In this document: in pieces, positions 3,100 through 64,000 of the stretch | Position numbering within the stretch: position 1 is the stretch's first letter | Layout of the letters: each line of letters opens with the position of its first letter | Assembly: GCF_039654945.1 (NCBI RefSeq) | Contig: NW_027361797.1 | Coordinates: forward strand, 5,890,001-5,954,000 | Direction: 5' to 3' | From: Dendrobates tinctorius | Taxonomy: Eukaryota | Length of the DNA: 64,000 bases | Program-made: the position numbers and the translations under genes | The notes under the pieces: generated by a model | The model's input: only the letters and a program-made list of their open reading frames with translations | What the model was told of the DNA's origin: nothing | Databases searched by the model: none

Positions 3100-4071
3100 T
3101 TTTATATCACCACAGCACTAAATGACAAGGTGAGTTACAGCAGGCTGTTTAATATTTTTTCACTAGTTACACATGAATTAGAATGCTATATTCGTGCATG
3201 GAGCACAATAGAAGCAGTGCACAACATGTGCCATGATGGCTTTCTTTGTGCACCTCAATATGGCCAACAAAGAAAAAAAAGTGATGAAAGGTAAATTTAA
3301 TAGCCACACTGGACACTAGCTACCTACAGTACCTGACTGATATACAACCACCTAGCAAACTAGCTAAAATGTAGCATACAGCAGGCTTTTTCACATTTAG
3401 CTACTGAAAAAATATTATTTAGAATCCTATACTTGTGCATGGAGCACAATAGAAGCAGTGCACAACTCACTTGTAGGACAAGTGCCCTGCTGGCTTTGTC
3501 TGTGAACCTCAGTAATGCCCCTCAAAAAATAAAATTCTGGAAGGTAAATTTTACAGCCATACTGGACACTATCTAGCTGCACTATCTGACGGATATATAC
3601 AACCGCCTAACTAACTAGCTGAAATCTTGCTGTTAACAGTGCCAGTGTCAGGAGCAGTCTCTCTGCACTGTTGCAGTATCAAAATGGCACTAAAACAAGA
3701 TGTCTGCTCTGTCAGGACATTGTGTCAGGGAATTGTGGGTGTTTCCTGCCAGCCACAATGTGCACACATAAAGCTACGGAAAAAAAATGAATGTGCTGTG
3801 CATACAGGAAGACCGCACCTCTGAGCTATGCAAACCCCCTCCCCTCATCAAATACGTGAAAACACTCATGATACATCACCATTATCGTTGCAAAAGTGCT
3901 GAAAATATTTTTGTGGCAACGCAAATATTTTCCCGCACTTTTATCGAATGTTACCGATTTTCACCAGTTTTACAAAATTTTGCTCGGGTTTCCGATCATA
4001 AATCTGAATGTGCCAGACCTGTGCCAAACTTATGTTTGGCGATCATTTTCCAAACAAATTCGCTCATCGTT
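3100..4071. mobile_element. Degraded hAT-like element end
   Basis: Ends in AAATTCGCTCATCGTTA, matching the TAGTGATGAGCGAA-type TIR seen elsewhere in the window. Contains an internal ~240-bp duplication (3190-3370 vs 3430-3620). Confidence 0.45.
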
Positions 4072-5227
4072 AGTTGTGACGTATTCTTGATTAGGCCAGA
4101 CGTGTCTTACAGTGGATCCAGAGACCTAAGCTATAGAGATGAGTGAACACTAAAAAGCTTGGCTGCTTGTTCCTCGAACCAAAGAATTCTTAATGCTCAG
4201 ATGCTTGTTTCAAAGTACGGGTATAATGAGAGTCAATAGAAAACAAGAGCATTTTTCCGACAAACTTACAATTAGGTCTGAGATCAGGGAAAATGTTGAA
4301 ATGGATGGAAAAGTACTGAATGAAAGGTGAACAGCATCTCTGACTCTCAGATCACTGCTGATAATTATGGTGTCACCCTTTTACCCCACTTTAAGGACTG
4401 ACAATAAAACATTCAAAATCGACGAGAAATTGGAGTTTACAGGGGAAAAGTGTTAAGAAACATTCTTTCCTGTATAATGAGTTGTATATAAGGTAAAATT
4501 TACAAAGGATTTAAAAAAATAATAATTTAAGGAGACCAGCATTGACATTTTTATTAAAACTTTGGAATGTTCAGTGTACTTTATGAAGGAAGCAAGAACT
4601 TCCAAAAATATGATGGAAGAGGGACTCAGATACACCCTGTATTAGAGATAAAGGAAGGCCTCATACACATTCTATTCAAATTGTTATGTAGTGATACTGC
4701 TAAGCTCATAAAGGCTATGCACTAAGTGGAAAGCCTGCCAAAAATTACAAGCAGGGTTAACCATGCACCCTTGAAGGCACCAACTGTAGTACCGCATTCA
4801 AATATTGTGAACAAAGACTAGTTGTGGTACTTCAACACTCGCAAAAGCTCAGCACCCAGCATAAAACCTGCCAAAAATTACAAGCAGGATCATCAATACA
4901 TCCTTGAAGGCACCAACTGGAGTGCCTCATATAAAAAAAAATGTAGTTATTGCACGTCTACACTCATAAAGGTTCAGCACACAGTAAAAAGCCATGAAAA
5001 AAATTCTAAGAAGGTTAATACAGTCATCGAAAGACCCTTGAAGGTAACAACTTGAGGGCCTCATTAAAATATTTTGAAAGGATAGTTGATGTACTCCTAC
5101 GCACATAAAGGCTTTGCACAAACTGCAAAGCTAGGAAAACATTATAATTATGGTCATCAAGTCATTCATAGATTCTTGAAGGCAATAACTGTCAATCCTC
5201 ATTCAAATATTGACGATTAAAAACACT

Positions 5228-52315: not shown

Positions 52316-55300
52316 TGAGCACCCCGCGGGGCCTGGGGGTACTCGGTACCAGGCCCGTCGACTTCAATGGGGGACGGTGTCACGGCGGCGGCGACCCGGT
52401 CCGTGGCCCAGAGGCATCCAGTAAATGGAATAGGGGAAAGTTGTGTGGTATTTTTGTGGTAAAAATAAATGAAAATAAAGTTATTAGATGGTGAAATACG
52501 TGACGCCACCTGTGGTATTCTAGTCAGAGGTGACCAGCGCTGCGGTGTTGCTTCTCTGGGATGGATGTTGGGCGCAGCTGTGATGTTGTAGCCCTCTACA
52601 GGTAGGGCTGTAGTCCCAGGGCAAAGATGTTAAATAAATAGTACAAATGGCTGTAAATGTTGGGGTGCAGATAAATGAAAGAAACAGAGAGGTGCAGTTT
52701 CTTTACCTTTTACTGGTAATAGGTTGCAGTCCGGAGTACCACATACAGGTGATGGAATGAGTCCGGCTTGCCTGGAGGCATTCAGGGGATCCACCTTGCC
52801 AGGTGGGGATTTAGGACCTTCCTTTCTGCGCTTTTTGTGTGGGTCTCCGCTGTATATAACTATGCTGCAACCCTCTATTCGTGATGGTTTCACTAACCTG
52901 TATGGCTGTCAGCGTGAGCCTATTCCACGGGTACCGTCCTTTTCACCGTCGACACCGGGCTCCTTATCTGCTGATGTGCCCTCAGGTGTTCAATGTGCAC
53001 AGGAATTTACAATCCCATGTGCTTTCAGATTCAACTATCAGGGCATACAGTTACTGTCAGCCTAGGACTCTGATGTCCCTTTTCCTCTATTAGCGTTTCA
53101 CTCAGGGGTCTGCTATATACAGTATTTTAGCTTCCCCAGAGTCTCTCAGTCTCTGCTCTTGTACTATTCCTTCTTCACAGATCAGCTCCCTGTCTTCAGC
53201 TGACAGGATCTTCCAGAAAGATCCGTTTACCTCACGTCTTCACGTTTAACTGTCATCTTTTCCTCACAGCTCACAGCTGCTTCGTTTCCATGACAACCCC
53301 CTCAGCTGATTTCTAGCTGACTCACCAACCCCCTCTGCTGGCCAGAATTTAAAAGGCATCTCCCTTTTCTGACTTGAGGCAGGAAATTGTGATTAAATTT
53401 ATTACCTGGCATGGGGGGCCCCTTTCTGCCTCCAAGCATGACTTCACCTCTTAGAGGGAGGCGATGTCACTGTGACAACCAGACTGTAGGGTGTCACATT
53501 CCTCCCCAGTTAAGTTCAGTACTCCTGGACTGAGGAAACATAACAAGAATTGTTAACAACAAAAATTAATGGAAATCTACAAAGTCTTAAAAATGTAAAA
53601 ATTATCAAAAACCAGACAAGAGAAAGAAAACAATAGCACAGTTACTGCAGCGACCAGTCCTTACGCTGCTGTCCAGGAATTGTCTTTGTGCTTGTACCTG
53701 GAGTTTAGTTGGTGAGAACCACCTTAACCCACTTTGTGTGTCAACCCTGGGTGTGGCTACAGGGCACTCTGTAGATGGGCCTGTTTTTCGGCCATGCCGG
53801 CGGCTTATTTCCAAGGCCTTTTTGGAGTAACTATTTACAGTACAAATACAGTCCTGACCACACATAGTCCTGTGGCCCAATTGTCCTTTAACTGGTTATA
53901 GCGAAAACTTAAAAAAAAAGGTTCTTACAGTAAGTCTCTGTAGGCTCTCATGCTTAGCAGTTACTACTATACATTCTTATTACTTTATTTACATTATGTA
54001 ATCTCTGTAACGGGCAAGGATTTGACCTCTTGTACTATGAGTGGATCTATGCAGTATAGGTATTTCTGATTGCCTGACCTGTTCTCTGATGTCTACTGTT
54101 GGTGCATTAGTCACTATGCTATATGTAGACTTGTGTAAGATAGGTATTATAGACTGCCTTCTCTCTACTCCTAGACTCACCATGAGATTGTCAGATTCGC
54201 TGTTAGCAGGGGACAGATTTCCGCATTCCTCTGCAGATGTGGTATCTGTCACTGGAGCCATTTCATTTAGACTCTCTTCTTTATCTGGTGCAGTAGGCTG
54301 ATGAAAGGTTAGTACTGGTACTACTATTGCCTGATTTACTTGTGTCCATGTCCGAGGAAATTCTCCAAGTATAGCTTAAATCTTTTCTTCCACCTCTACT
54401 ATGGGCTGTGGAGTGTCTTGGACTTCTTTCTTGTCCTTCAATTGATCAGGGCACATCTTTAGATGATCTCTTGAGACTGCTTCGAAGGGTTCTCCTCCAT
54501 CTTTGCTGTTGATACATACTTTGGTGTTATTAAAGTCTGAAGGTATCACAGTGTATGGCTCTGCTTCCCACTGGTCATCTAGTTTGTGAACACGTTTCTT
54601 TCTTTTAAGTACTTGTTCTCCTGGTGTTAAGGGAACTGCAGGTGCGTTTTGATTGTAATTTCTTTCCTGCCTCTGTCTTGCTTGGGACAAACTTTTCTCC
54701 ACACATTCTTGCACTTTGCGGTATTGTTGCTTGCACTTGATGGTGAAGTCGTAGTTGGACAGCCGGGCCATCCATCGCTGCTCAAGTGCCCCGAGCTTTG
54801 CCGTTTCAAGTTGGGTTAGCGGATTATTGTCCGTGTAGATGGTGAACTTTGCGGAAGCCAAATAGTGCTTGAAGCGCTCTGTTACCGCCCAGACTATGAC
54901 AAGGAACTCCAGCTTAAAGGCCTTTATGGGCAGCACGGTGGCTCAGTGGATAGCACTGCAGCCTTGCAGCGCTGGAGTCCTAGGTTCGAATCCCACCAAG
55001 GACAACATCTCCAAGGAGTTTGTATGTTCTCCCCGTGTTTGCATGGGTTTCCTCCAGGCACTCCGGTTTCCTCCCACACTCCAAAGACATACTGATAGGG
55101 ATTTTAGATTGTGAGCCCCATTAGGGCCAGTGATGAAAATGTGTGCAAACTGTAAAGCGCTGCGGAATATGTTAGCGCTATATAAAAATAAAAGATTAAA
55201 AGATTATTATAGATTAAAGGAACTGTAGTTGTCGGGGTTTCTCTCAGTGGGACGAAGCTTCCTGCTGGCATAGGCAATCACTCTCTCTCTGCCTTTCTGC

Positions 55301-58300
55301 ACTTGTGACAGCACTGCTCCCAATCCCACATTGCTGGCGTCAGTGTAAAGTACAAATGGTTGGTCATAGTCAGGGTAGGCCAGGACCTCATCTCCTGTGA
55401 GGGCCAATTTCAACTTGGTGAAGGACTCTTCTATCCTTTTCTTCTACTCGAACGGAAGATTTTTGCTCTTGGCCTTCTTGGATTGGCCCACTAGAAGATC
55501 TTGCAGCTGTGCTGCTATCTTGGTGAAGTTCTTGATAAATCTTCGGTAGTAGCCTACTAACCCAAGAAATTGCCTCACTTCATGGATAGTGCTGGGTCTT
55601 TTCCAGTCCCGGATAATGGTGACTTTGTCAGGATCGGGTGCCACACCTTCCGCGCTCACAACATGGCCTAGGTACTGCACCTTGGGTTTCAAAAGGTGAC
55701 ATTTGGACGGTTTTATTTTCAGGCCAAAGTTTGAGAGGGTTTCGAATACCTCGGCTAGGTGCTTCAAATGGTCTTCGTAGGTTTTGGAGAAGACGATGAT
55801 GTCATCCAGGTACAGCAGAACGGTTTCAAAGTTTTTATGTCCAAGGCAGCATTCCATTAACCACTGAAATGTTCCTGGTTCATTCCTGAGCCCGAACGGC
55901 ATGTAGTTAAATTCGCAGAGGCCCATTGGTGTTGTAAACGCTGTCTTCTCTTTGTCTGCTTCTTCCACAGGAACCTGCCAATACCTTCTGGTGAGATCTA
56001 AGGTAGAGAAATAATTGCGGTTCTCAGTGCAGCTAGTGATTCCTCAATTCTAGGCAATAGGTACGCGTCTTTATGTGTAATGCTGTTAAGCCGCCTGTAG
56101 TCTAAACACATTCTCATAGTACCATCTTTCTTCTTAACGAGGACTAATGGAGCTGCCCAGGGGCTGCAACTAGCTCTGATTACCCCAGCCTCCTTCATCT
56201 CTCGTAAGATACTCTTGGCACATTGGTAGTGTGCTGGGGGTACAGGCCGGTGTCTCTCTTTAATGGGTGGATGATCTCCGGTGGGGATATGATGTTGAAC
56301 CCCTTTTACCTGCCCAAAATCTAGAGGATGCTTGCTGAAGACCCGTTCAAATTCTCGAGCTACCCGGTAAGCCCCATGCTTTTGGTGTGAAGGGGTGGAG
56401 TCAGTGCCTACGTGAAGCTGCTGACACCAATCCTCCTGTTGCCTTTCAGAGCCATTCTCTTCCACCTTGTCAGATGGAAGCAATGGTTCTAGTGCCTCTA
56501 TTGCATTGTTACTGACGGTGCACAATTTAGCAAGGGTGGCATACCGGGGTAACTGGACCTCTCTCTCCCCATAATTTAAGATGCATATTGGTACTCTCCC
56601 CTTGTGGACATCAACTACCCCTCTGGCTGTCAGGATAGTGGGCCTACAATCAGAGTACATGGGTTCTACCAGGGCTTGGTAATCTTGAACCCTTAGGCCT
56701 ATTGCTGCTCGACACCAAATTAACATTTCACTTCTGGGAGGTACAGCAATGGGGAAAGGATCACTTACTCTGACACTGCCGACTTCTCCACCAGACAGCT
56801 CTACCTGTCTCTGCATTAGGGCTCTGATCTCCTTTTGCTGGACCCGCTGCTGACTGGAGCTGGCGGTCTCAGGTACCTGTTGTAACAAAGCAATCATTTC
56901 TCCAAGACAATTTTCAATTACGTCAGTGCCTAAAGTGATCATAGGATGGCATTCTCGTTTGTCAATATCAACTATTATCAAACCTTTGCATTTGCAATTC
57001 TACTCGGCCAATCTTGATGGTCTACTCTTTATATCCCATCTGAGGCAAGGGCTGACCATTGCTGGCAATAATGACAAGGTCTTTATCTGGGCTGTGAGTA
57101 ATGTCTGAATCTGCCCAGTACTGCTTAAAAAGAACATATGGCATCGTTGTCACCTGGGAACTGCTGTCCAGTAAAGCGTTCATCGGAAAACCGTCAATCA
57201 CGACAGGCAAGACTGGTCGACCTCCTACGTACTTGTCTCGCCAATTTGGTGGGCCCGGTGATCTTACTCCTGGGGGTTGGCCCTTTGCCCCAGGGGTTGC
57301 TTGTTTAAATTACAGTATCTTGCTAGATGTCCTTGTTGCAGCGGCGACAGATGGACTGTCTGTCCTCGTCGTAACAATAGCTGTCTCTCCCTCTGGTCTG
57401 TGGGATCCTCTTCTGCTGTCGCCACGGGATGTTTTCTGGACTGGAGACCAGCTGGATCTTCTTCTTTGGAATCACTTGCAGGGACTGCACAGTTTTTGTG
57501 AGTGTAGCCACACTTTTGGTTAGTTACTTTACTTGGAGACATAAGTCTGCAGCAGAATCATCATCTTGGGACAGCTTGTCAGTCTCAATAGGGGTCTTTG
57601 GAAAGGATGCTGCCTCCTGCTGGTATGTAATTGCAGGATGTTGAGAGGGCTCTGTGCTGCTAGGGTTCGGTTCACGCAGCACTCTGATGGCTCTATCCTT
57701 AAAGTGTGCAAAATCCAATTCAGGATTTTGTAGGGCCATTATACGCAGCTGTGTCCTTTGGTTGTTAGACTGGAGTCCCTCTATGAACTGCTCTGTTAAT
57801 AATCTATCTTCATCTTGCACGCTCTCAGGATCAACCTGCTTTACATCCCATAGTGCCTCCTGAAGATTAAGGGCATAGTCCCTTATACTGTTCTGCACTC
57901 TCTGTTTGCACCCAAAAAATCTCATTTTTATCTCTGTTGCATTGCGGGTATCAAAAGTGTCTTTCAGTCTGGCTAAGACTTGTTTGACAGTTCCTTTATC
58001 AGTGTCCGGCCAGGACTTTACTTCCCTCTGAGCTGCACCAGTTAACTGGCCAATGAGGATACTGACTTTTTGTCTTTCTGACAGGGGGTACACTTTGAAC
58101 AAACTACATAGTCTTTCTTTAAAATCGCTCAGGGTGTGCGACTCCCCTGAGTACTGTGGTAACGAGGCTGCTCCTGGTATATATGGCATTGATAGCGGCA
58201 TTATTGAGGATGCAGCTGCGACCGCCACTGAATCTTCACCCGAGTTGAGCATTTTATTCCTGCTTTTTCACTTGCTCACTAACGTCAGAGCATGGGCAGG
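52316..58300 (-). mobile_element. Ty3/Gypsy retrotransposon, degraded; 3' LTR present, 5' LTR lost
   Basis: The LTR (52316-53498) ends GGGTGTCACA next to a PPT (TTCCTCCCC on +). Gag is at 57524-58252 with a CCHC at ~57330, followed by PR LLDSSS, RT YLDD (55444-55968) and RNase H TDASNVGLGAVL. The integrase core is deleted. Confidence 0.88.
54928..55210 (+). mobile_element. tRNA-derived V-SINE with an L2-type 3' tail, inserted in the Gypsy RNase H
   Basis: A box TGGCTCAGTGG (54939), B box GGTTCGAATCCC (54983), V-domain GGAGTTTGTATGTTCTCCCCGTG...CTCCGGTTTCCTCCCAC, and TSD TTAAAGG. Confidence 0.9.
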
Positions 58301-58613
58301 GGCTTTGCATCGAGAGAAGCCGTATGGGGCCCATAGCCTCACTGGGAGGCTAACATGACAGGGTATAGTGGGAGTAAGGAAGCGTACAGGACCTGAGCTA
58401 GCAGAAGGGTTAATCTACTTAGGAGGCGGGTTTGTGGAGTTGGGAGTTTTGGTTTAGCCTGGTAGAAGGAATGAGGAGGGGTTAAATTGTAAAAGGGGGT
58501 GGGCTTATGGAAGGGGGGTGGAGGACCAGTATATAGGTTCCGGCCATTTTAGTTTGGGTACCATTTTAGGTACCTTGGCTGAGAGGAAGAAGCTATTTGT
58601 GGTACCTGACATT

Positions 58614-60595
58614 ATGGACGTGGAGTCCTTGTTGCAACGGCTGCGTGAGGTGGCGGTCTCACAGGGGACAGGCTGGCTGCAGGCTTCGGTGGACAGCCTG
58701 CTGCAAGGGTCGGCGACCAGAGCTTCCCTGGTTCCTGAGAGTGGACGCTGGCCTTGGAGGTCACGAGGTCGCACCCAGGGCCCGGCGCCGTGTTAGGAGC
58801 CCCTCTAGGGACCCTCCGGTAACGAGCGCTTGACGCAGGCCTGCGGTTCCACCTCAGAATGCCGGGAGGAATCCTTCTGATCGGCATGGCCTACAGCGGG
58901 GGGGAGGAGTCGGCCTCCCTCCCAGCATCTGCGAGACATCGGTGGTTCTCTGGAGCCGGAGCGGCGGGCTCCTGTGTGAGAGTGGAGCCTGCTCGGCGTG
59001 GAAGAGGCAGGGAGGTGAGACAGTTGGGGCCTCAACGGGCGGTCCCTCAGCGCATGGAGAGCGGCGGCCAGTCACGGTCTGTGGCTGGCTCAGGCAGCGA
59101 CGCTCTGCACCCAGCGGTGCAGGAGTTAGGGAGTCAGCTCGGTGGTGGTTCGGGGGCTGGGGAGCCCGGGATACAGTCAGGAGGAGGCGGGCAGCCGGCA
59201 GCTGCCTCGGTCTGCGCTCATTCCAGCCTGTCAGCAGAAAGCACAGGCAGTTACCGATATGGGCAGCCGGACGCTGGCCTGCTACAGCCACCAACACCTT
59301 CATCAGCAGCTCCGGGGGTCCCTGGCTCGGTAGTGGATGCGGCTATGGGGGACGGCCGGCTGCTGCCAGGTCGGGGAGTCTCAGGAGCTGCAGGATCATC
59401 TCTGGACCAGCTCAGGAGCGGACCTGCACATGGCCCTTCATCCCTGGATTCTGGACCTTCGGCTGCTGGGCTCACAGCACCCAGGCAGCTAGGTGAGAAT
59501 GCTAATCTTTATCCTTTTCATTCCTATTTAGCTTCCCCTGAATCTAGAGGGCAGGAGGGCTATTGTGGGGGTCGTGCTGGGGGAGCTGGTTTGATTTTGC
59601 ATGGCTTGAGGGAATTGGCCTTGATGTGGGGGTCAGGGGGGTGGTATACAGCTAACTCGCCTTCAGCAGCGTGGGTAGGTGGTCCCAATACACCGGTGGG
59701 TCTTACGGATATGTCAGTGGTGTCAGATAGTTTAGGGGATGCGCGTGCGGGAACTCATGCGGCTTCTGGTGATGGCAGTGAAGCGGCAGGGAGTCGTCTT
59801 CGGGCTGAGGAGCCATCGGTGGTGGCGGAGACTGCCAGCGAGAAACATAAGGAGTCTGAGGTGCGCTTGGATGACGCTGCTAAAGGGGAGGTGTATGTGT
59901 GCTTTGAGAGTCCATTGGGGGCTCACTTGAAGCAGGAGATGAGGGAAAAAATATGGAAAGGGGAGTATGTTGAGATATTTTCATTATTACCACTGGAACG
60001 TTTCAATTTGGACAGGCAGAGGAAAGATGATTTTAAAAAGGATGAGGAAGAAAGGAGGAGGTATCGCTTGATACCCAGGACCTTCCCTAATTGGTTACAA
60101 GCATTTGCTATTTTAGCCAGCATTATTGGGGAAAAGGCCCCGGAGAATTGTGCAGGCCTATTTTGTTATATGGACGCGATTGTGGAGGCGTATCGGGTTT
60201 ATGGGGGTCAGGGTTGGCTGCGTTATGACGAGCAATTTCGTCAACGGAAAGGAGTTCACCCCAATATACGGTGGGATCATAAGGACATCGCTCTTTGGAT
60301 GAAGGTAATGGTTCCGTCTAGGTTGGGGTCTGGTAGTCAGCCCTTTCAGGGGGGAACCGGGGGTTTCGGGCAGTCAGGACACTCAGTTGCTATGCAGAGA
60401 GGGCTGTGCTTTGCATTTAACGAAGGGACATGTAAATTCGGGAGTAAATGCAAGTTTAAGCATGAATGTGTAGCCTGTGGGGGCTCTCACGGCGCAGTTA
60501 AATGTTTTAGGAATTCCAGAGCAAAGGGCGGTGACAATGTTGAAAAGAGGGGAGACACCAGTGTGGCTGGACGCGATGGCGGGTTTCCTAAGTAG
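58614..60595 (+). pseudogene. Ngaro ORF1 (Gag-like, CCCH zinc finger), frameshifted near 58770-58830
   Basis: MDVESLLQRLRE...; EKIWKGEYVEIFSLL, WLQAFAILAS, WLRYDEQFRQR, CFAFNEGTCKFGSKCKFKHEC. Confidence 0.8.
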
Positions 60596-62061
60596 GTACC
60601 CGGATGCTGCTGCTGCAAGCTTGTTGTACGAAGGTTTTAGGGATGGTTTTAAGATCCCTTTTGTTGACCAAGAAATACGTTTGAGTACAAAAAATTTGAA
60701 GTCGGCATTACAATATCCGGAGGTGGTGTCTGATAAGTTAGGAAAAGAAGTTAGTTTGGGCAGGATGGCGGACCCGTTTGCTGAAGTACCACTTAATAAT
60801 TTGAGGGTTTCACCACTTGGTGTGGTCCCTAAAAAAGAGCCCAACAAGTTCAGGCTTATTCATCACTTATCTTTTCCTAAAGGATCATCGGATAACGACG
60901 GGATTGATCCACAGTTGTGCTCAGTACTGTACACGTCCTTTGATGCGGCCATGGATTGGGTTTGGTTGTGTGGCAAGGGAGCATTGTTGGCAAAGACGGA
61001 TATTGAGGCCGCGTTTCATTTGTTGCCTGTTCATCGTGATAGTTTGCACCTACTAGGTTGTTTCTGGGATGGCAGCTTTTCCGTGGACCGTTGTCTTCCA
61101 ATGGGTTGTTCGCTTTCGTGCGCATACTTTGAAACTTTCAGTACGTTTTTGGAATGGGTTGTTAAAGACGTCTTGGGCTTGAGCTTTTGCATTCATTATC
61201 TTGACGACTTTTTGCTTGTTGGCCCTGCTAACGCGTCAGATTGTTCTTTGCTGTTTCATACTATGGAAAGCGTGTCTAAAAGGTTTGGGGTTCCGTTGGT
61301 GGCTGAAAAAAACTGTTGGGCCATTGTCAGTGTTGAGTTTCCTGGGCATTGAAATCGATACCATGGCTATGGAATGCAGATTGCCCTCTGATAAATTGAT
61401 TGCATTGTATGAGGAAGTCTCGAGGGCCCAAGGTTCTCAAAAAATTATGCTATGAATTTTACAATCGTTGCTGGGCAAGCTGAATTTTGCATGTAGAATA
61501 ATGCCGATGGGTCGTGCATTTTGTAGATGTTTGTCACTGGCGACAGTGGGGGTGAAATCCCCTGTCCATTTTGTTAGACTCAAAAAAGAATTGAAAAATG
61601 ATTTGAAAGTATGGTCTCGTTTTCTCGAGGAGTACAATGGCAGATCTATTTGGATTCAACCAGTGACAGATGCTGAAGTGCTCGGTTTTCTCCTTGACAG
61701 CGATTCGAGGCGAGGTTTTAGTTTGTACTTTCGTGGAAAATGGGTGGTGGCGAGTTGGCCGAATGCGTGGATTGAACTTGGCTTATTGGCGAACCGGATT
61801 TTGGTGCACCTATTCCCAATTGTAGTGGCTTTGGCTTTGTGGGGAGAGGAAGTTAAGAATTCAAAGATTAATTTCTCATGCGAGCTACCGGGAGTGGCGA
61901 CGGCGATAAATGCTTTATCTGCTGATACCCCAGCAGTGGTAAAAGTGTTGCAGCATTTGGTTTTTGTGGGTTTATCGTTTAATCTATGGATCGTATCTGA
62001 GGTAAAGGCGAGTCCGCGTAATCCTATCATTGATGCTCTTTCTCTTTCACAGTGGGATTGA
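60477..62061 (+). pseudogene. Ngaro reverse transcriptase / RNase H, frameshifted
   Basis: SPLGVVPKK, FRLIHHLS, KTDIEAAF, LPMGCS, HYLDDF. A frameshift falls in the A-run at ~61306. RNase H: LFPIVVALALWG..IDALS. Confidence 0.9.
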
Positions 62062-62117
62062 TTTCGGGAGCTGGCGCCACATGCGGAACCGGTGAGCCGG
62101 GAATGTCCAATGGAATT

Positions 62118-63011
62118 ATGGAATCTTCCTTGCGGGCAGTGAGGGATTTGCTTTCTAGATCATTGTCAGACAGGTCATGGAAGCAATACGGAAAGGCATT
62201 GAACATGTGGGACGGTTGGGGTTCATCATTTGGGGATTTTATGGATGGTGAGAGTAAACTAGTTTTTTATTGGGTCATTGTTGGGAGTCAGGTTGGTCGG
62301 TGTCTATGGTAAATAAATTCGTGGCTGGCCTTGGTTTTGCTTTTAAGTCAAAGGGCACAAAGGATTTGACTAAATCCTTTTTGGTGCGTCAGGTATTAAG
62401 GGGTTGGAGGAAGGGTTGGAGATCAGCAGACACTAGGAGGCCAGTTTCGTACGAGATTCTGCTGAGTATTGGTCAACATTTGACACAAGTGTGTTATTCG
62501 AGTTGGGAAGTGGAATTATTTAAGGCGGCTTTTGCTCTAGCTCTTTTCAGGGCCTTTCACCTGGGGGAACTGGTAAGTCCGTCTAGGTACAAAAAGGGGG
62601 GGTGCTGAGGGAAGAAGTGGACGTGTTTGAGGATAGAGTGGTGGTATTTTTACGTTCGTCAAAACAGACGTTACGGGGAGGGGATGCAAGGTGGTTTTGT
62701 TCGCAGTCCCTGGTTCACCTTTGTGTCCAGTGGCTTGTGTGAGGAACTTTATGGGTAGGGGAGGAATCCCGCAGGATCCGCTGTTGGTACATGCCGATGG
62801 TTCATTGTTATCTCGGTTTCAGTTCGTGGCAATATTTCGTCGCTGTTTGGAGTTGAGAGGTTTATCGGCAATGAATTATAGTGGTCATTCTTTTCAAAGC
62901 GGGGCAGCCATGGAGGCAGCTAGACGGGGCCTCGGTGACGAGGTGGTTAAAAGGATCGGACGGTGGGAATCGGCTAGATTTCGGTCTTATGTTCGCCCGA
63001 ATTTGGTTTAG
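62118..63011 (+). pseudogene. Tyrosine recombinase, frameshifted
   Basis: DTRRPVS, AF(R>H)LGEL, CPVA, GHSF(R>Q)SGAA, IGRWES..FRSY. Confidence 0.88.
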
Positions 63012-63077
63012 TGTGGGCGGTCGTCATCTTGTTAGGTTGGGTTTAAATTTGTTGGTGTTTTTTCTGCTTTATTGCAG

Positions 63078-63544
63078 GGCTTGGTCAACCTCTCGCTTGG
63101 CTAATGGGCCATTCATATGTGTTCTGGGTGGCAATTCGAGCAGCGGTTCGGCCAGATGGGCGTCAATTAGGCTTCCCTCGTGAGACAGTGGTTCTGCATT
63201 GAATCGGAAAGAGGGGGATGGTGTGGAGGCAGTTTCTTCCGGAATTTCATCGTTTTGCCCATCTGTACCGTGCTCCTAATGTTGTCATTCATTTGGGTGG
63301 TAATGACCTGGGTTCGAGGCCGTGTAGGGAGTTGATTAAGGATATAAAATTTGACATGTTAAGGCTGTGGGCTGAATTCCCGAAGGTGGTGGTTATTTGG
63401 TCGGACATTGTTTTTCGTAAAGTTTGGAGCGGAGCTCGGTCGGTAGAAGGGGTAAACAGGGCAAGGATAAAGGTGAATAAGGCCATATCTCATTTCATGG
63501 CGAGGAATGGGGCCGTGGTGGTTCGCCATTCATACTCAAAATGA
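63078..63544 (+). pseudogene. SGNH/GDSL-type hydrolase exon, truncated
   Basis: After a strong acceptor the frame reads WLMGHSYVFW (block I), H*IGKRGMVW (block II Gly, one stop) and VIHLGGNDLG (block III), then NKAI. Block V (DxxH) is lost with the truncation at ~63535. Confidence 0.8.
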
Positions 63545-63694
63545 GTATGTTCTAATATATTTGATGCAATTGTTTTTTTTCACTTGAAAAGAATGCTAGT
63601 CCAGCTGTGAAACGCATTGTGGAAATAAAAACCATTCAACACATCTTAGTCCTAAGGATTCCTCATTACAGGAGCGCAGCCTGATAACGTGTAA

Positions 63695-63889
63695 GGCCAG
63701 AGTCACACTACAGCGAGATACGGCCGAGTCTCGCAGGTTAAAACCAAGCTCTGGCACCGGCACTCCAGAGCAGAGCGTGCAGCTCCATGTATTGCTGTGC
63801 GGCTGCACGCTCCGCTCCGGGGTGCCGGCGCCAGAGCTTGGTTTTAACCTGCGAGACTCGGCCGTATCTCTCTGTGTTTGATCCTGGCC
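63695..63889. mobile_element. Palindromic Harbinger-type MITE (~195 bp)
   Basis: TAA|GGCCAG...CTGGCC|TTA with an almost perfect internal palindrome. Confidence 0.8.
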
Positions 63890-64000
63890 TTAAAGTCAAA
63901 ATTAGTAAACTGTTTTGGAGGAGATCATCCCCCAGCCACGAGGCAGCAGCAGCTGATTTCTCCAGGTGTCCATAAGAGTTGTTCATGCATACAACCTGCT

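Follow-up and report, generated by a model that had tools for sequence, protein, structure and literature searches.

How does a retrotransposon make protein from a downstream open reading frame (ORF) that has no usable start codon of its own? The question arises from 64,000 nucleotides (nt) of the frog Dendrobates tinctorius (NCBI RefSeq assembly GCF_039654945.1, contig NW_027361797.1, forward-strand positions 5,890,001 to 5,954,000), hereafter the window, in which positions are counted from the first letter. A single plus-strand element occupies 58530-63530, with gag (including a CCCH finger), reverse transcriptase (RT)/RNase H (RH), tyrosine recombinase (YR), and SGNH hydrolase in that order, and it is a decayed, 3'-truncated Ngaro-type tyrosine-recombinase retrotransposon. 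An earlier note on this DNA had proposed that one spliced message fuses the N-terminus of Gag (Gag-N) to the hydrolase, in the manner of retroviral env splicing. We consider it very likely that this is a decayed Ngaro copy whose intact members splice one gag donor to either a hydrolase or a recombinase acceptor, yielding Gag-N::SGNH and Gag-N::YR proteins. At the family level, the Gag-N::SGNH splice is well supported.

A gag donor and a hydrolase acceptor in one phase

Both splice sites named in the earlier note were found as described. The 5' splice donor (TAG/GTGAGA, 59490-59498, plus strand) ends its exon at 59492 (...CAGCTAG/GTGAGA) in phase 1 of the gag frame that opens at 58823. It matches the consensus at five of seven positions; 13 of the 367 GTs attain this strength (about 2 in each kb of the window), and taken alone it is an ordinary, only moderately strong donor. 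The hydrolase acceptor, a polypyrimidine tract with CAG (63058-63077, plus strand), has 14 pyrimidines in 16 positions and 40 nt free of AG upstream. The last letter of its AG is 63077, and the exon begins with the next letter, 63078, which lies 66 nt past the recombinase stop. Joining at 63078 alone is in frame with the hydrolase (PRQL-G-LGQPLAWLMGHS), while 63079 and 63080 are out of frame. That the hydrolase lacks a usable start of its own also held: its frame has a stop at 63044, its first ATG, at 63104, encodes the Met of LMGHS within block I, and another stop follows at 63200.

Ranking all 347 AGs in 58560-63550 by their pyrimidine count (of 16) placed 63077 joint highest. Only four of the 347 reach 14/16, three of them as YAG: 63077, 62052, and 59531. 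The hydrolase acceptor is thus beyond chance. The third of these sites closes a T-rich tract with CTAAT and TAG (59499-59531, plus strand) whose TAG lies 39 nt past the donor; T makes up 52% of this tract and 19% of the 200 nt that precede the donor, and the site is too near 59492 to pair with it. The tract, with its branch-like CTAAT, pyrimidines, and TAG, could dampen splicing and so preserve genomic RNA, or it could serve an upstream donor such as 59014. Two candidate acceptors for RT, at 60510 and 60519, are in phase 1 but weak (7/16 pyrimidines), and we make no claim for them.

Proteins with this join are already present in databases. Seven of the 15 longer relatives of the hydrolase (from 156 candidates) carry Gag-N without the Gag core, RT, or YR. 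A profile built from 10 Gag-N::SGNH proteins matched 2884 representatives at an E-value threshold of 0.001; among the best 150 of these, 147 bear SGNH, 44 of the 147 have Gag-N, and 43 of the 44 lack the Gag core, RT, RH, and YR. Because the profile is biased toward fusions, 43 of 150 gives an abundance, not a proportion. Records were looked up for 20 of the best 150 matches and for 10 of the 15 long hydrolase hits. Most of these records are RefSeq models that carry the name "uncharacterized" or "collagen-like", and several are numbered isoforms; RefSeq isoforms are normally backed by transcript evidence. Those with Gag-N come from Bufo, Hyla (a 10-member cluster over many loci), Engystomops, Hyperolius, Rana, Eleutherodactylus, Rhinoderma, Dendropsophus, and Ranitomeya. 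Further records come from Spea, Bombina, and lizards; the Gag-N profile did not match the Bombina and lizard N-termini, which presumably also derive from gag. No relatives were found among the viral contigs searched, and in the protein atlas the nearest clusters are unnamed or SGNH-type, from Chordata and Mollusca, and serve as leads only.

The junctions in these proteins resemble the one predicted here. Bufo P0101 (isoform X4) reads ...AGFTAPGQLG-GAPLLVWILGHS, close to the prediction for the window, and in neobatrachian models block I follows the Gag donor peptide after 3-6 residues, without an insert. A peptide like that before 59492 precedes the junction in P0101, P0003, P0037, and P0075. 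The corresponding exon end (59446-59492, plus strand, ...GPSAAGLTAPRQL) is the only part of 58752-59631 matched by a contig seen in three of three read sets described below. About 16 codons before the donor are kept across families in which the rest of the linker is unalignable, which could reflect a splice enhancer or a peptide motif.

Traces of the two sites extend beyond gene models. The peptide Q-[PLS]-G-[EK], the reading of a donor G/GT-RAG, lies 123-161 codons before the Gag core (136 in the window copy). It occurs in seven of 24 full Gags that bear Gag-N (7/10 non-Xenopus and 0/14 Xenopus-type), and shuffled sequences yield it 2-10% of the time. Xenopus-type Gag and fusion pairs part, in three of three cases, where the Gag has Gly and the fusion has Val. 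On the acceptor side, six of 12 read-assembled stand-alone hydrolases reach at least 8 residues upstream of block I, the other six starting at or after it; all six extended ORFs carry a Phe/Cys/Leu-rich (pyrimidine-codon) run ending in [PILTA]-[GD], as fits YAG/G in phase 1.

Distant, unannotated DNA gave the same result. A metagenome scan with a hydrolase-only alignment returned 16 loci; 11 of them carry this kind of hydrolase, 10 with block I located. Five loci (L012-L016) were dropped because their upstream ORFs mark LINE-type (long interspersed nuclear element) or bacterial esterases, and L008 was excluded since its block I was not located. A scan with the fusion alignment confirmed none of 600 pattern matches. 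The remaining hydrolases share 27-39% identity with the frog query, and we infer that their loci belong to invertebrates, apart from L001, which is probably from fish. An open phase-1 YAG with at least 10/16 pyrimidines, 14-41 nt before the block-I Gly, is present at eight of the 10 loci (chance expectation 2-6% per locus); L002 and L006 are related and therefore count as less than two. Every one of the five non-frog loci with YR upstream has a phase-1 acceptor before its hydrolase, and no conserved start codon was found upstream of block I in the relatives. Position 1173 of L009 is a weak candidate donor (4/7 matches, phase 1). At L001, neither a recombinase nor RT lies in the 4 kb upstream of the hydrolase exon with its phase-1 acceptor (4036-4680), which is on a fish-like contig and may be host-adopted.

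Support for the core of the earlier proposal, a phase-1 gag donor joined to the hydrolase acceptor, thus comes from a large number of independent gene models, from traces of both sites in relatives, and from distant unannotated DNA. Nor did the observations that the earlier note had set beforehand as grounds for abandoning it, such as sites out of phase or lost in relatives, turn up in elements with a recombinase upstream.

The earlier note had also suggested looking for junction reads, and here the outcome was divided. We used three runs from a single study, picked by species label and guessed to be RNA. A donor contig is present in all three (796, 1592, and 1014 nt); it matches 59446-59493 with six differences and then continues into sequence that does not begin with GT. 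Beyond the donor, only the phase-1 frame runs through its 30 shown letters without a stop (checked by hand), and these letters matched none of the fetched proteins. For this reason, and because the contig comes from a related copy, it shows use of the donor, not of the window junction. No contig spanning 59492/63078 was found, although one contig in each of the three runs leaves the element at the donor. We gave no weight to a contig that starts at 63084, close to the acceptor, and a joint from 59638 to 61801 (GG..TT, 21 letters between, one run) is non-canonical and was read as a deleted copy and not as a splice.

Read assemblies elsewhere hold both joined and unjoined forms of a derived Gag-N::SGNH gene. 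The joined form is a Logan cluster of 43 members with contiguous Gag-N::SGNH; the 15 listed are all 458 residues long, on contigs of 1.4-1.6 kb. The unjoined form, P0266, carries the same hydrolase after a translated pyrimidine tract and parts from the joined form at the same Asp.

A probable recombinase acceptor and competing explanations

The earlier picture of a single spliced message is right about the donor-to-hydrolase splice but incomplete, as an equally strong acceptor in the same phase lies at 62052, and isoform pairs of relatives use both. This second phase-1 acceptor (TTGAT, CTCTTTCTCTTTCACAG; 62030-62052, plus strand), which opens the recombinase frame, is newly described here. It ties for the top score (14/16), has a branch-like TTGAT 22 nt upstream, and overlaps the D-A-L-S-x-x-Q motif at the C-terminus of RNase H. 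Gene models that splice at this site (P0127, P0131, P0140, P0004, P0006, and P0080) include Xenopus-type and R. imitator proteins. Five non-frog loci were examined for the RNase H end motif; in all three that have it, a phase-1 CAG opens the YR frame, and the first in-frame ATG of that frame lies 28, 79, and 86 codons in. Isoform sets from Ranitomeya variabilis (P0005, P0103, P0189) and Bombina (P0236, P0280) share one exon that is followed by either SGNH or YR. Both downstream ORFs begin with a top-ranked acceptor in the phase of the donor; therefore, one gag donor probably feeds both hydrolase and recombinase. We regard the splice to 62052 as likely, with less confidence than the pattern as a whole, because its CAG also serves as a Gln codon and unspliced contigs span the site.

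In intact members, one RNA would be transcribed from the 5' repeat, and its unspliced form would be the genome and the Gag message, and probably also the RT message. In a fraction of this RNA, the single phase-1 donor, where the low-complexity half of gag ends, would be joined to either of the two phase-1 acceptors. Splicing to the hydrolase acceptor would remove an intron of 3585 nt in the window copy and produce Gag-N::SGNH; splicing to the start of the recombinase frame would remove 2560 nt and produce Gag-N::YR. Active elements would, as we infer, express both ORFs by this splice.

The earlier note had Gag-N joined directly to the hydrolase. Neobatrachian models agree, but Xenopus-type models pass through a short middle exon, which raises the alternative that the hydrolase acceptor is real and that its usual partner is such an exon after the YR acceptor, or a donor in the N-terminus of YR, producing Gag-N::x::SGNH or YR-N::SGNH. 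A 28-codon YR-leader exon is inserted in all three Xenopus-type models (P0127, P0131, P0140), the N-terminal helix of YR is joined to SGNH in P0174, P0200, P0205, P0228, P0229, and P0231, and the window copy has a 5/7 donor at 62091 in phase 1 of the YR frame. We nonetheless judge this alternative improbable, given the donor peptide placed shortly before block I without an insert in neobatrachian models; moreover, the three-exon form keeps Gag-N and would modify the two-acceptor splice and not overturn it.

Several observations weigh against the two-acceptor splice. Most fusions are gene models, and the predictors also join the same donor to mid-RT (P0003, P0004, P0006) and join YR-N or RT to SGNH, 16 of the 147 SGNH-bearing matches carrying RT, RH, or YR pieces. 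With sites joined in several ways, the models alone would not settle the splice, and a profile made from fusions favors fusions. The donor motif was defined after the window copy had been seen and is absent from all 14 Xenopus-type Gags and from three of the 10 others. In L009 and L011, the two non-frog loci that hold gag, no phase-1 donor with 5/7 matches was found, and L004 and L005 lack a good acceptor and have in-frame ATGs, though neither has a recombinase. The CAG of the YR acceptor is also a conserved RNase H Gln codon, so protein constraint could explain part of its conservation. In the three probable RNA runs, no contig joins 59492 to 63078 or 62053, contigs cross 62052 unspliced in three of three, and the only listed joint is the non-canonical one in a single run; the runs are only guessed to be RNA and all come from a single study, and just 30 letters are shown of what follows the donor in its contig. 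Finally, the joined form in read assemblies comes from a clade with altered catalytic motifs that hosts have probably adopted, and not from an active element.

A second alternative holds that the fusions are gene-prediction artefacts on strong cryptic sites, that the hydrolase has a start or promoter of its own or is made by reinitiation downstream of the recombinase, and that YR is expressed by frameshifting. Predictors demonstrably join these sites in several ways, and L004 and L005 have ATGs of their own. The available text of PMC9210276 treats SGNH as a fourth overlapping ORF, on the basis of ATG-only ORF calling, and Poulter and Butler (2015), as quoted in the available text of PMC13003380, deem translation of YR by frameshifting probable. 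Against an artefact stand phase-1 acceptors kept in the unannotated DNA of distant animals, and joined and unjoined forms in read assemblies. The window copy has no in-frame ATG before block I, its relatives have no conserved start there, and an XXXYYYZ slippery heptamer is absent from all four RH/YR overlaps inspected (three non-frog loci and the window copy). We therefore see little prospect for this alternative, slightly less than for the middle-exon form. The splice sites, their phase and conservation, and database proteins with these joins are all documented.

The fusion proteins and the decayed copy

The predicted model of a Bufo fusion (P0008) consists of a two-helix hairpin (residues 2-30, with helices at 2-18 and 20-30), a disordered linker (34-267), and a hydrolase domain with the alpha/beta/alpha SGNH fold. 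Across 37 fusions, the columns that hardly vary include the Arg, Gly, and Trp of the hairpin. Lipase_GDSL_2 is the only Pfam content, and 133 PDB matches were obtained at E <= 0.001, those among the matches listed being of GDSL/SGNH type. The closest by sequence is the esterase of ZfL2-1 ORF1p (4C1B, E 9e-5), which ranked seventh in a second PDB search. An env-like signal peptide, fusion peptide, or transmembrane anchor was not seen in the P0008 model or in Pfam, with no dedicated membrane-helix predictor run. The env comparison drawn in the earlier note thus holds for the RNA logic but not for the product, which shows no env-like features and matches the layout of LINE esterase ORF1p. The Gag-N hairpin and Arg-rich linker might tether both the esterase and the recombinase to the Gag particle or the element RNA, with the esterase acting on lipids or membranes, an activity also proposed for the esterases of LINE ORF1p; we hold this function as a tentative proposal, nearly balanced between acceptance and doubt.

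All three catalytic motifs are retained in 30 of the 49 Gag-N fusions in our tree, spread over its whole frog part. A 12-member Gag-N::SGNH clade (P0013, P0014, P0099, P0107, P0113, P0114, P0119, P0120, P0180, P0215, P0222, P0266; tree support 0.999), ranging from Hyperolius to Dendropsophus, has altered catalytic motifs and is apparently a pseudo-esterase gene that neobatrachian frogs took over from the element, with its intron position kept. In R. variabilis, LOC143805314 (P0005, P0103, P0189, and matching records) splices one upstream exon to two hydrolase exons or a recombinase exon and is apparently a host-type Gag-N gene that captures exons of neighboring element copies. Very long proteins with two to six tandem, catalytically altered SGNH domains (P0097, P0098, P0112, P0116, P0129, P0130, P0136, P0142), among them the gecko protein P0097 (Sphaerodactylus, 3112 residues, six domains), are probable host genes built from the retrotransposon hydrolase.

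Such cases allow a third alternative, that the splice occurs but is neutral or serves the host, as exonisation or a defective-RNA route, and that the fusion is useful only in host-adopted genes. The altered clade and the R. variabilis locus, with its one exon spliced into several element-derived exons, are in its favor, and the donor contig may run on into a host exon. Against this stand the 30 catalytically complete fusions and the multi-locus clusters in Hyla and Bombina, which look like mobile families, and we consider it very improbable, the least probable of the three.

The window copy itself cannot make the fusion protein, since its Gag start is frameshifted and its hydrolase is interrupted by a stop and cut short. 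A TATA-like box (58530-58535) and GCCATTTT (58543-58550, plus strand), which we take to be an Inr/YY1-type motif, probably form the promoter in the 5' repeat A1, and no further ATG lies between these motifs and 58614. The gag-like ORF1 (58614-60595, plus strand; zf-CCCH E 1.9e-4) comprises the N-terminal helical hairpin, an Arg-rich and low-complexity linker, a conserved core, and a C-terminal CCCH finger. The hairpin (58614-58712, plus strand) is common to full Gag and fusions; by tblastn, residues 5-35 of P0101 align to 58620-58712. Relatives of the Gag core reach 77% identity in D. tinctorius, and Gag matches include Xenopus proteins with 51-58% identity over the core. The 5' part of ORF1 has two frame changes, placed by tblastn with the Gag of a relative between 58766 and 59444; therefore, ATG 58614 is out of frame with the donor in this copy.

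The RT/RNase H ORF (60474-62142, plus strand; RVT_1 E 4.4e-7) is broken by a frameshift and stops, and the tyrosine recombinase ORF (62053-63011, plus strand; Phage_integrase E 0.008) is frameshifted. As expected of Ngaro elements, gag, RT/RNase H, and YR lie in overlapping frames, each broken here, and RNase H passes directly into the YR overlap without the methyltransferase that follows it in DIRS-like elements; no Pfam family was found past RNase H on that ORF. An SGNH hydrolase ORF after YR, as in amphibian Ngaro members, is also present. This exon (63078-63529, plus strand), with relatives of up to 76% identity in Ranitomeya imitator, retains the block I Ser (GHS) and block III GxND (GGND) and is interrupted by the stop at 63200-63202. 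The stop and truncation confirm the decay described in the earlier note, but homology ends at about 63529-63532 and not at 63544; consequently, block V (DxxH) is missing.

No direct repeats of at least 30 nt (split A1...B1-A2-B2 repeats were sought) were found in 57000-64000, as the truncation has removed the 3' repeats of the element. In the distant relative L011, two identical copies of a 55-nt repeat were found, one at the 5' edge and one in the 3' region. A perfect 8-bp inverted repeat (63531-63549, no strand assigned) forms a hairpin at the breakpoint and is possibly a repair scar. Just beyond, at 63692-63892, is a 200-nt self-inverted repeat (86%) resembling a miniature inverted-repeat transposable element. 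On the other side, a decayed Gypsy-type long terminal repeat (LTR) retrotransposon (minus strand, 55207-58267; PNMA-like gag E 1e-6, RVT_1 E 7.5e-28) stands in head-to-head orientation to the Ngaro copy, whose TATA-like box is about 260 nt away.

Related systems and consequences for the family

The element and its hydrolase are already known; the spliced route appears to be new. According to the available text of PMC9210276, the Ngaro-like DIRS-order elements DIRS-53_XT and DIRS-54_XT of Xenopus carry gag, RT/RH, YR, and then an SGNH ORF "with no proven function". They share with the window copy the ORF order, the lack of a methyltransferase, and SGNH after YR, but are described there as four separate overlapping ORFs, whereas here SGNH and YR would be reached by splicing from the gag donor; unlike them, the window copy has no 3' split repeats. 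The strings "splic" and "intron" do not occur in the main text of PMC9210276. Our literature search found no description of a Ngaro Gag-N splice, and the available text of PMC7192593, PMC9341512, PMC8547959, PMC6681497, and PMC4495291 holds nothing on it; the main reviews by Poulter, Goodwin, and Butler, which may mention it, lay outside the reach of this search.

As a protein, the fusion is closer to LINE esterase ORF1p than to env. In the available text of PMC3905857, ORF1p of the zebrafish LINE ZfL2-1 (PDB 4C1B) dimerises through an N-terminal coil and also carries an Arg-rich motif and an esterase that binds lipids. The two share an N-terminal helical module (which self-associates in ZfL2-1), an Arg-rich stretch, a poorly conserved linker, and an SGNH esterase. 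The whole ZfL2-1 protein is, however, ORF1 of a non-LTR element and has a five-heptad coiled coil at its N-terminus (PMC3905857), whereas the Ngaro layout would be made by splicing, with a short Gag hairpin of putative self-association in that place.

Spliced messages for 3' genes have precedents. LTR retrotransposons express ORF3/env from them, including the GDSL-esterase ORF3 of bdelloid Vesta elements, according to the available text of PMC5408684. Vesta elements similarly place an esterase in a 3' accessory ORF served by a spliced message, but they belong to another order of elements, and their GDSL ORFs have no coiled-coil or membrane domains and no described Gag fusion (PMC5408684, same text). 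The Ngaro fusion would retain about 290 Gag codons, and the integration enzyme is probably spliced likewise.

Among retroviruses, the avian leukosis env leader and the spliced pol of foamy viruses are comparable, and the SD' RNA of murine leukemia virus is reportedly a spliced message with a Gag-derived leader. These parallel the Ngaro scheme in a subgenomic RNA from a donor inside gag and in an enzyme made from a spliced message. Ngaro differs in that it integrates by tyrosine recombinase and gives no evidence of an envelope or extracellular stage.

At stake is how elements of the DIRS order express their downstream ORFs, given a hydrolase without proven function or expression route (PMC9210276, available text) and a recombinase assumed to need frameshifting (as quoted in the available text of PMC13003380). 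Splicing would explain the expression of these genes and would define real proteins, Gag-N::SGNH and Gag-N::YR, in place of start-less ORFs, with exact junctions that can be tested in existing frog RNA data. Many "uncharacterized" or "collagen-like" frog proteins in RefSeq would likewise be accounted for as products of retrotransposon splicing, and the result draws attention to copies adopted by hosts. More broadly, and with slightly more doubt than for the tethering function alone, animal Ngaro elements from invertebrates to frogs and lizards may have conserved a one-donor, two-acceptor splice, with the YR acceptor inside the RNase H C-terminal motif, that places the same Gag-N hairpin on recombinase and lipid esterase. 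The hairpin might load both enzymes into the Gag particle without frameshifting, so that splicing would have rebuilt the layout of LINE esterase ORF1p, and hosts may repeatedly have adopted the spliced product.

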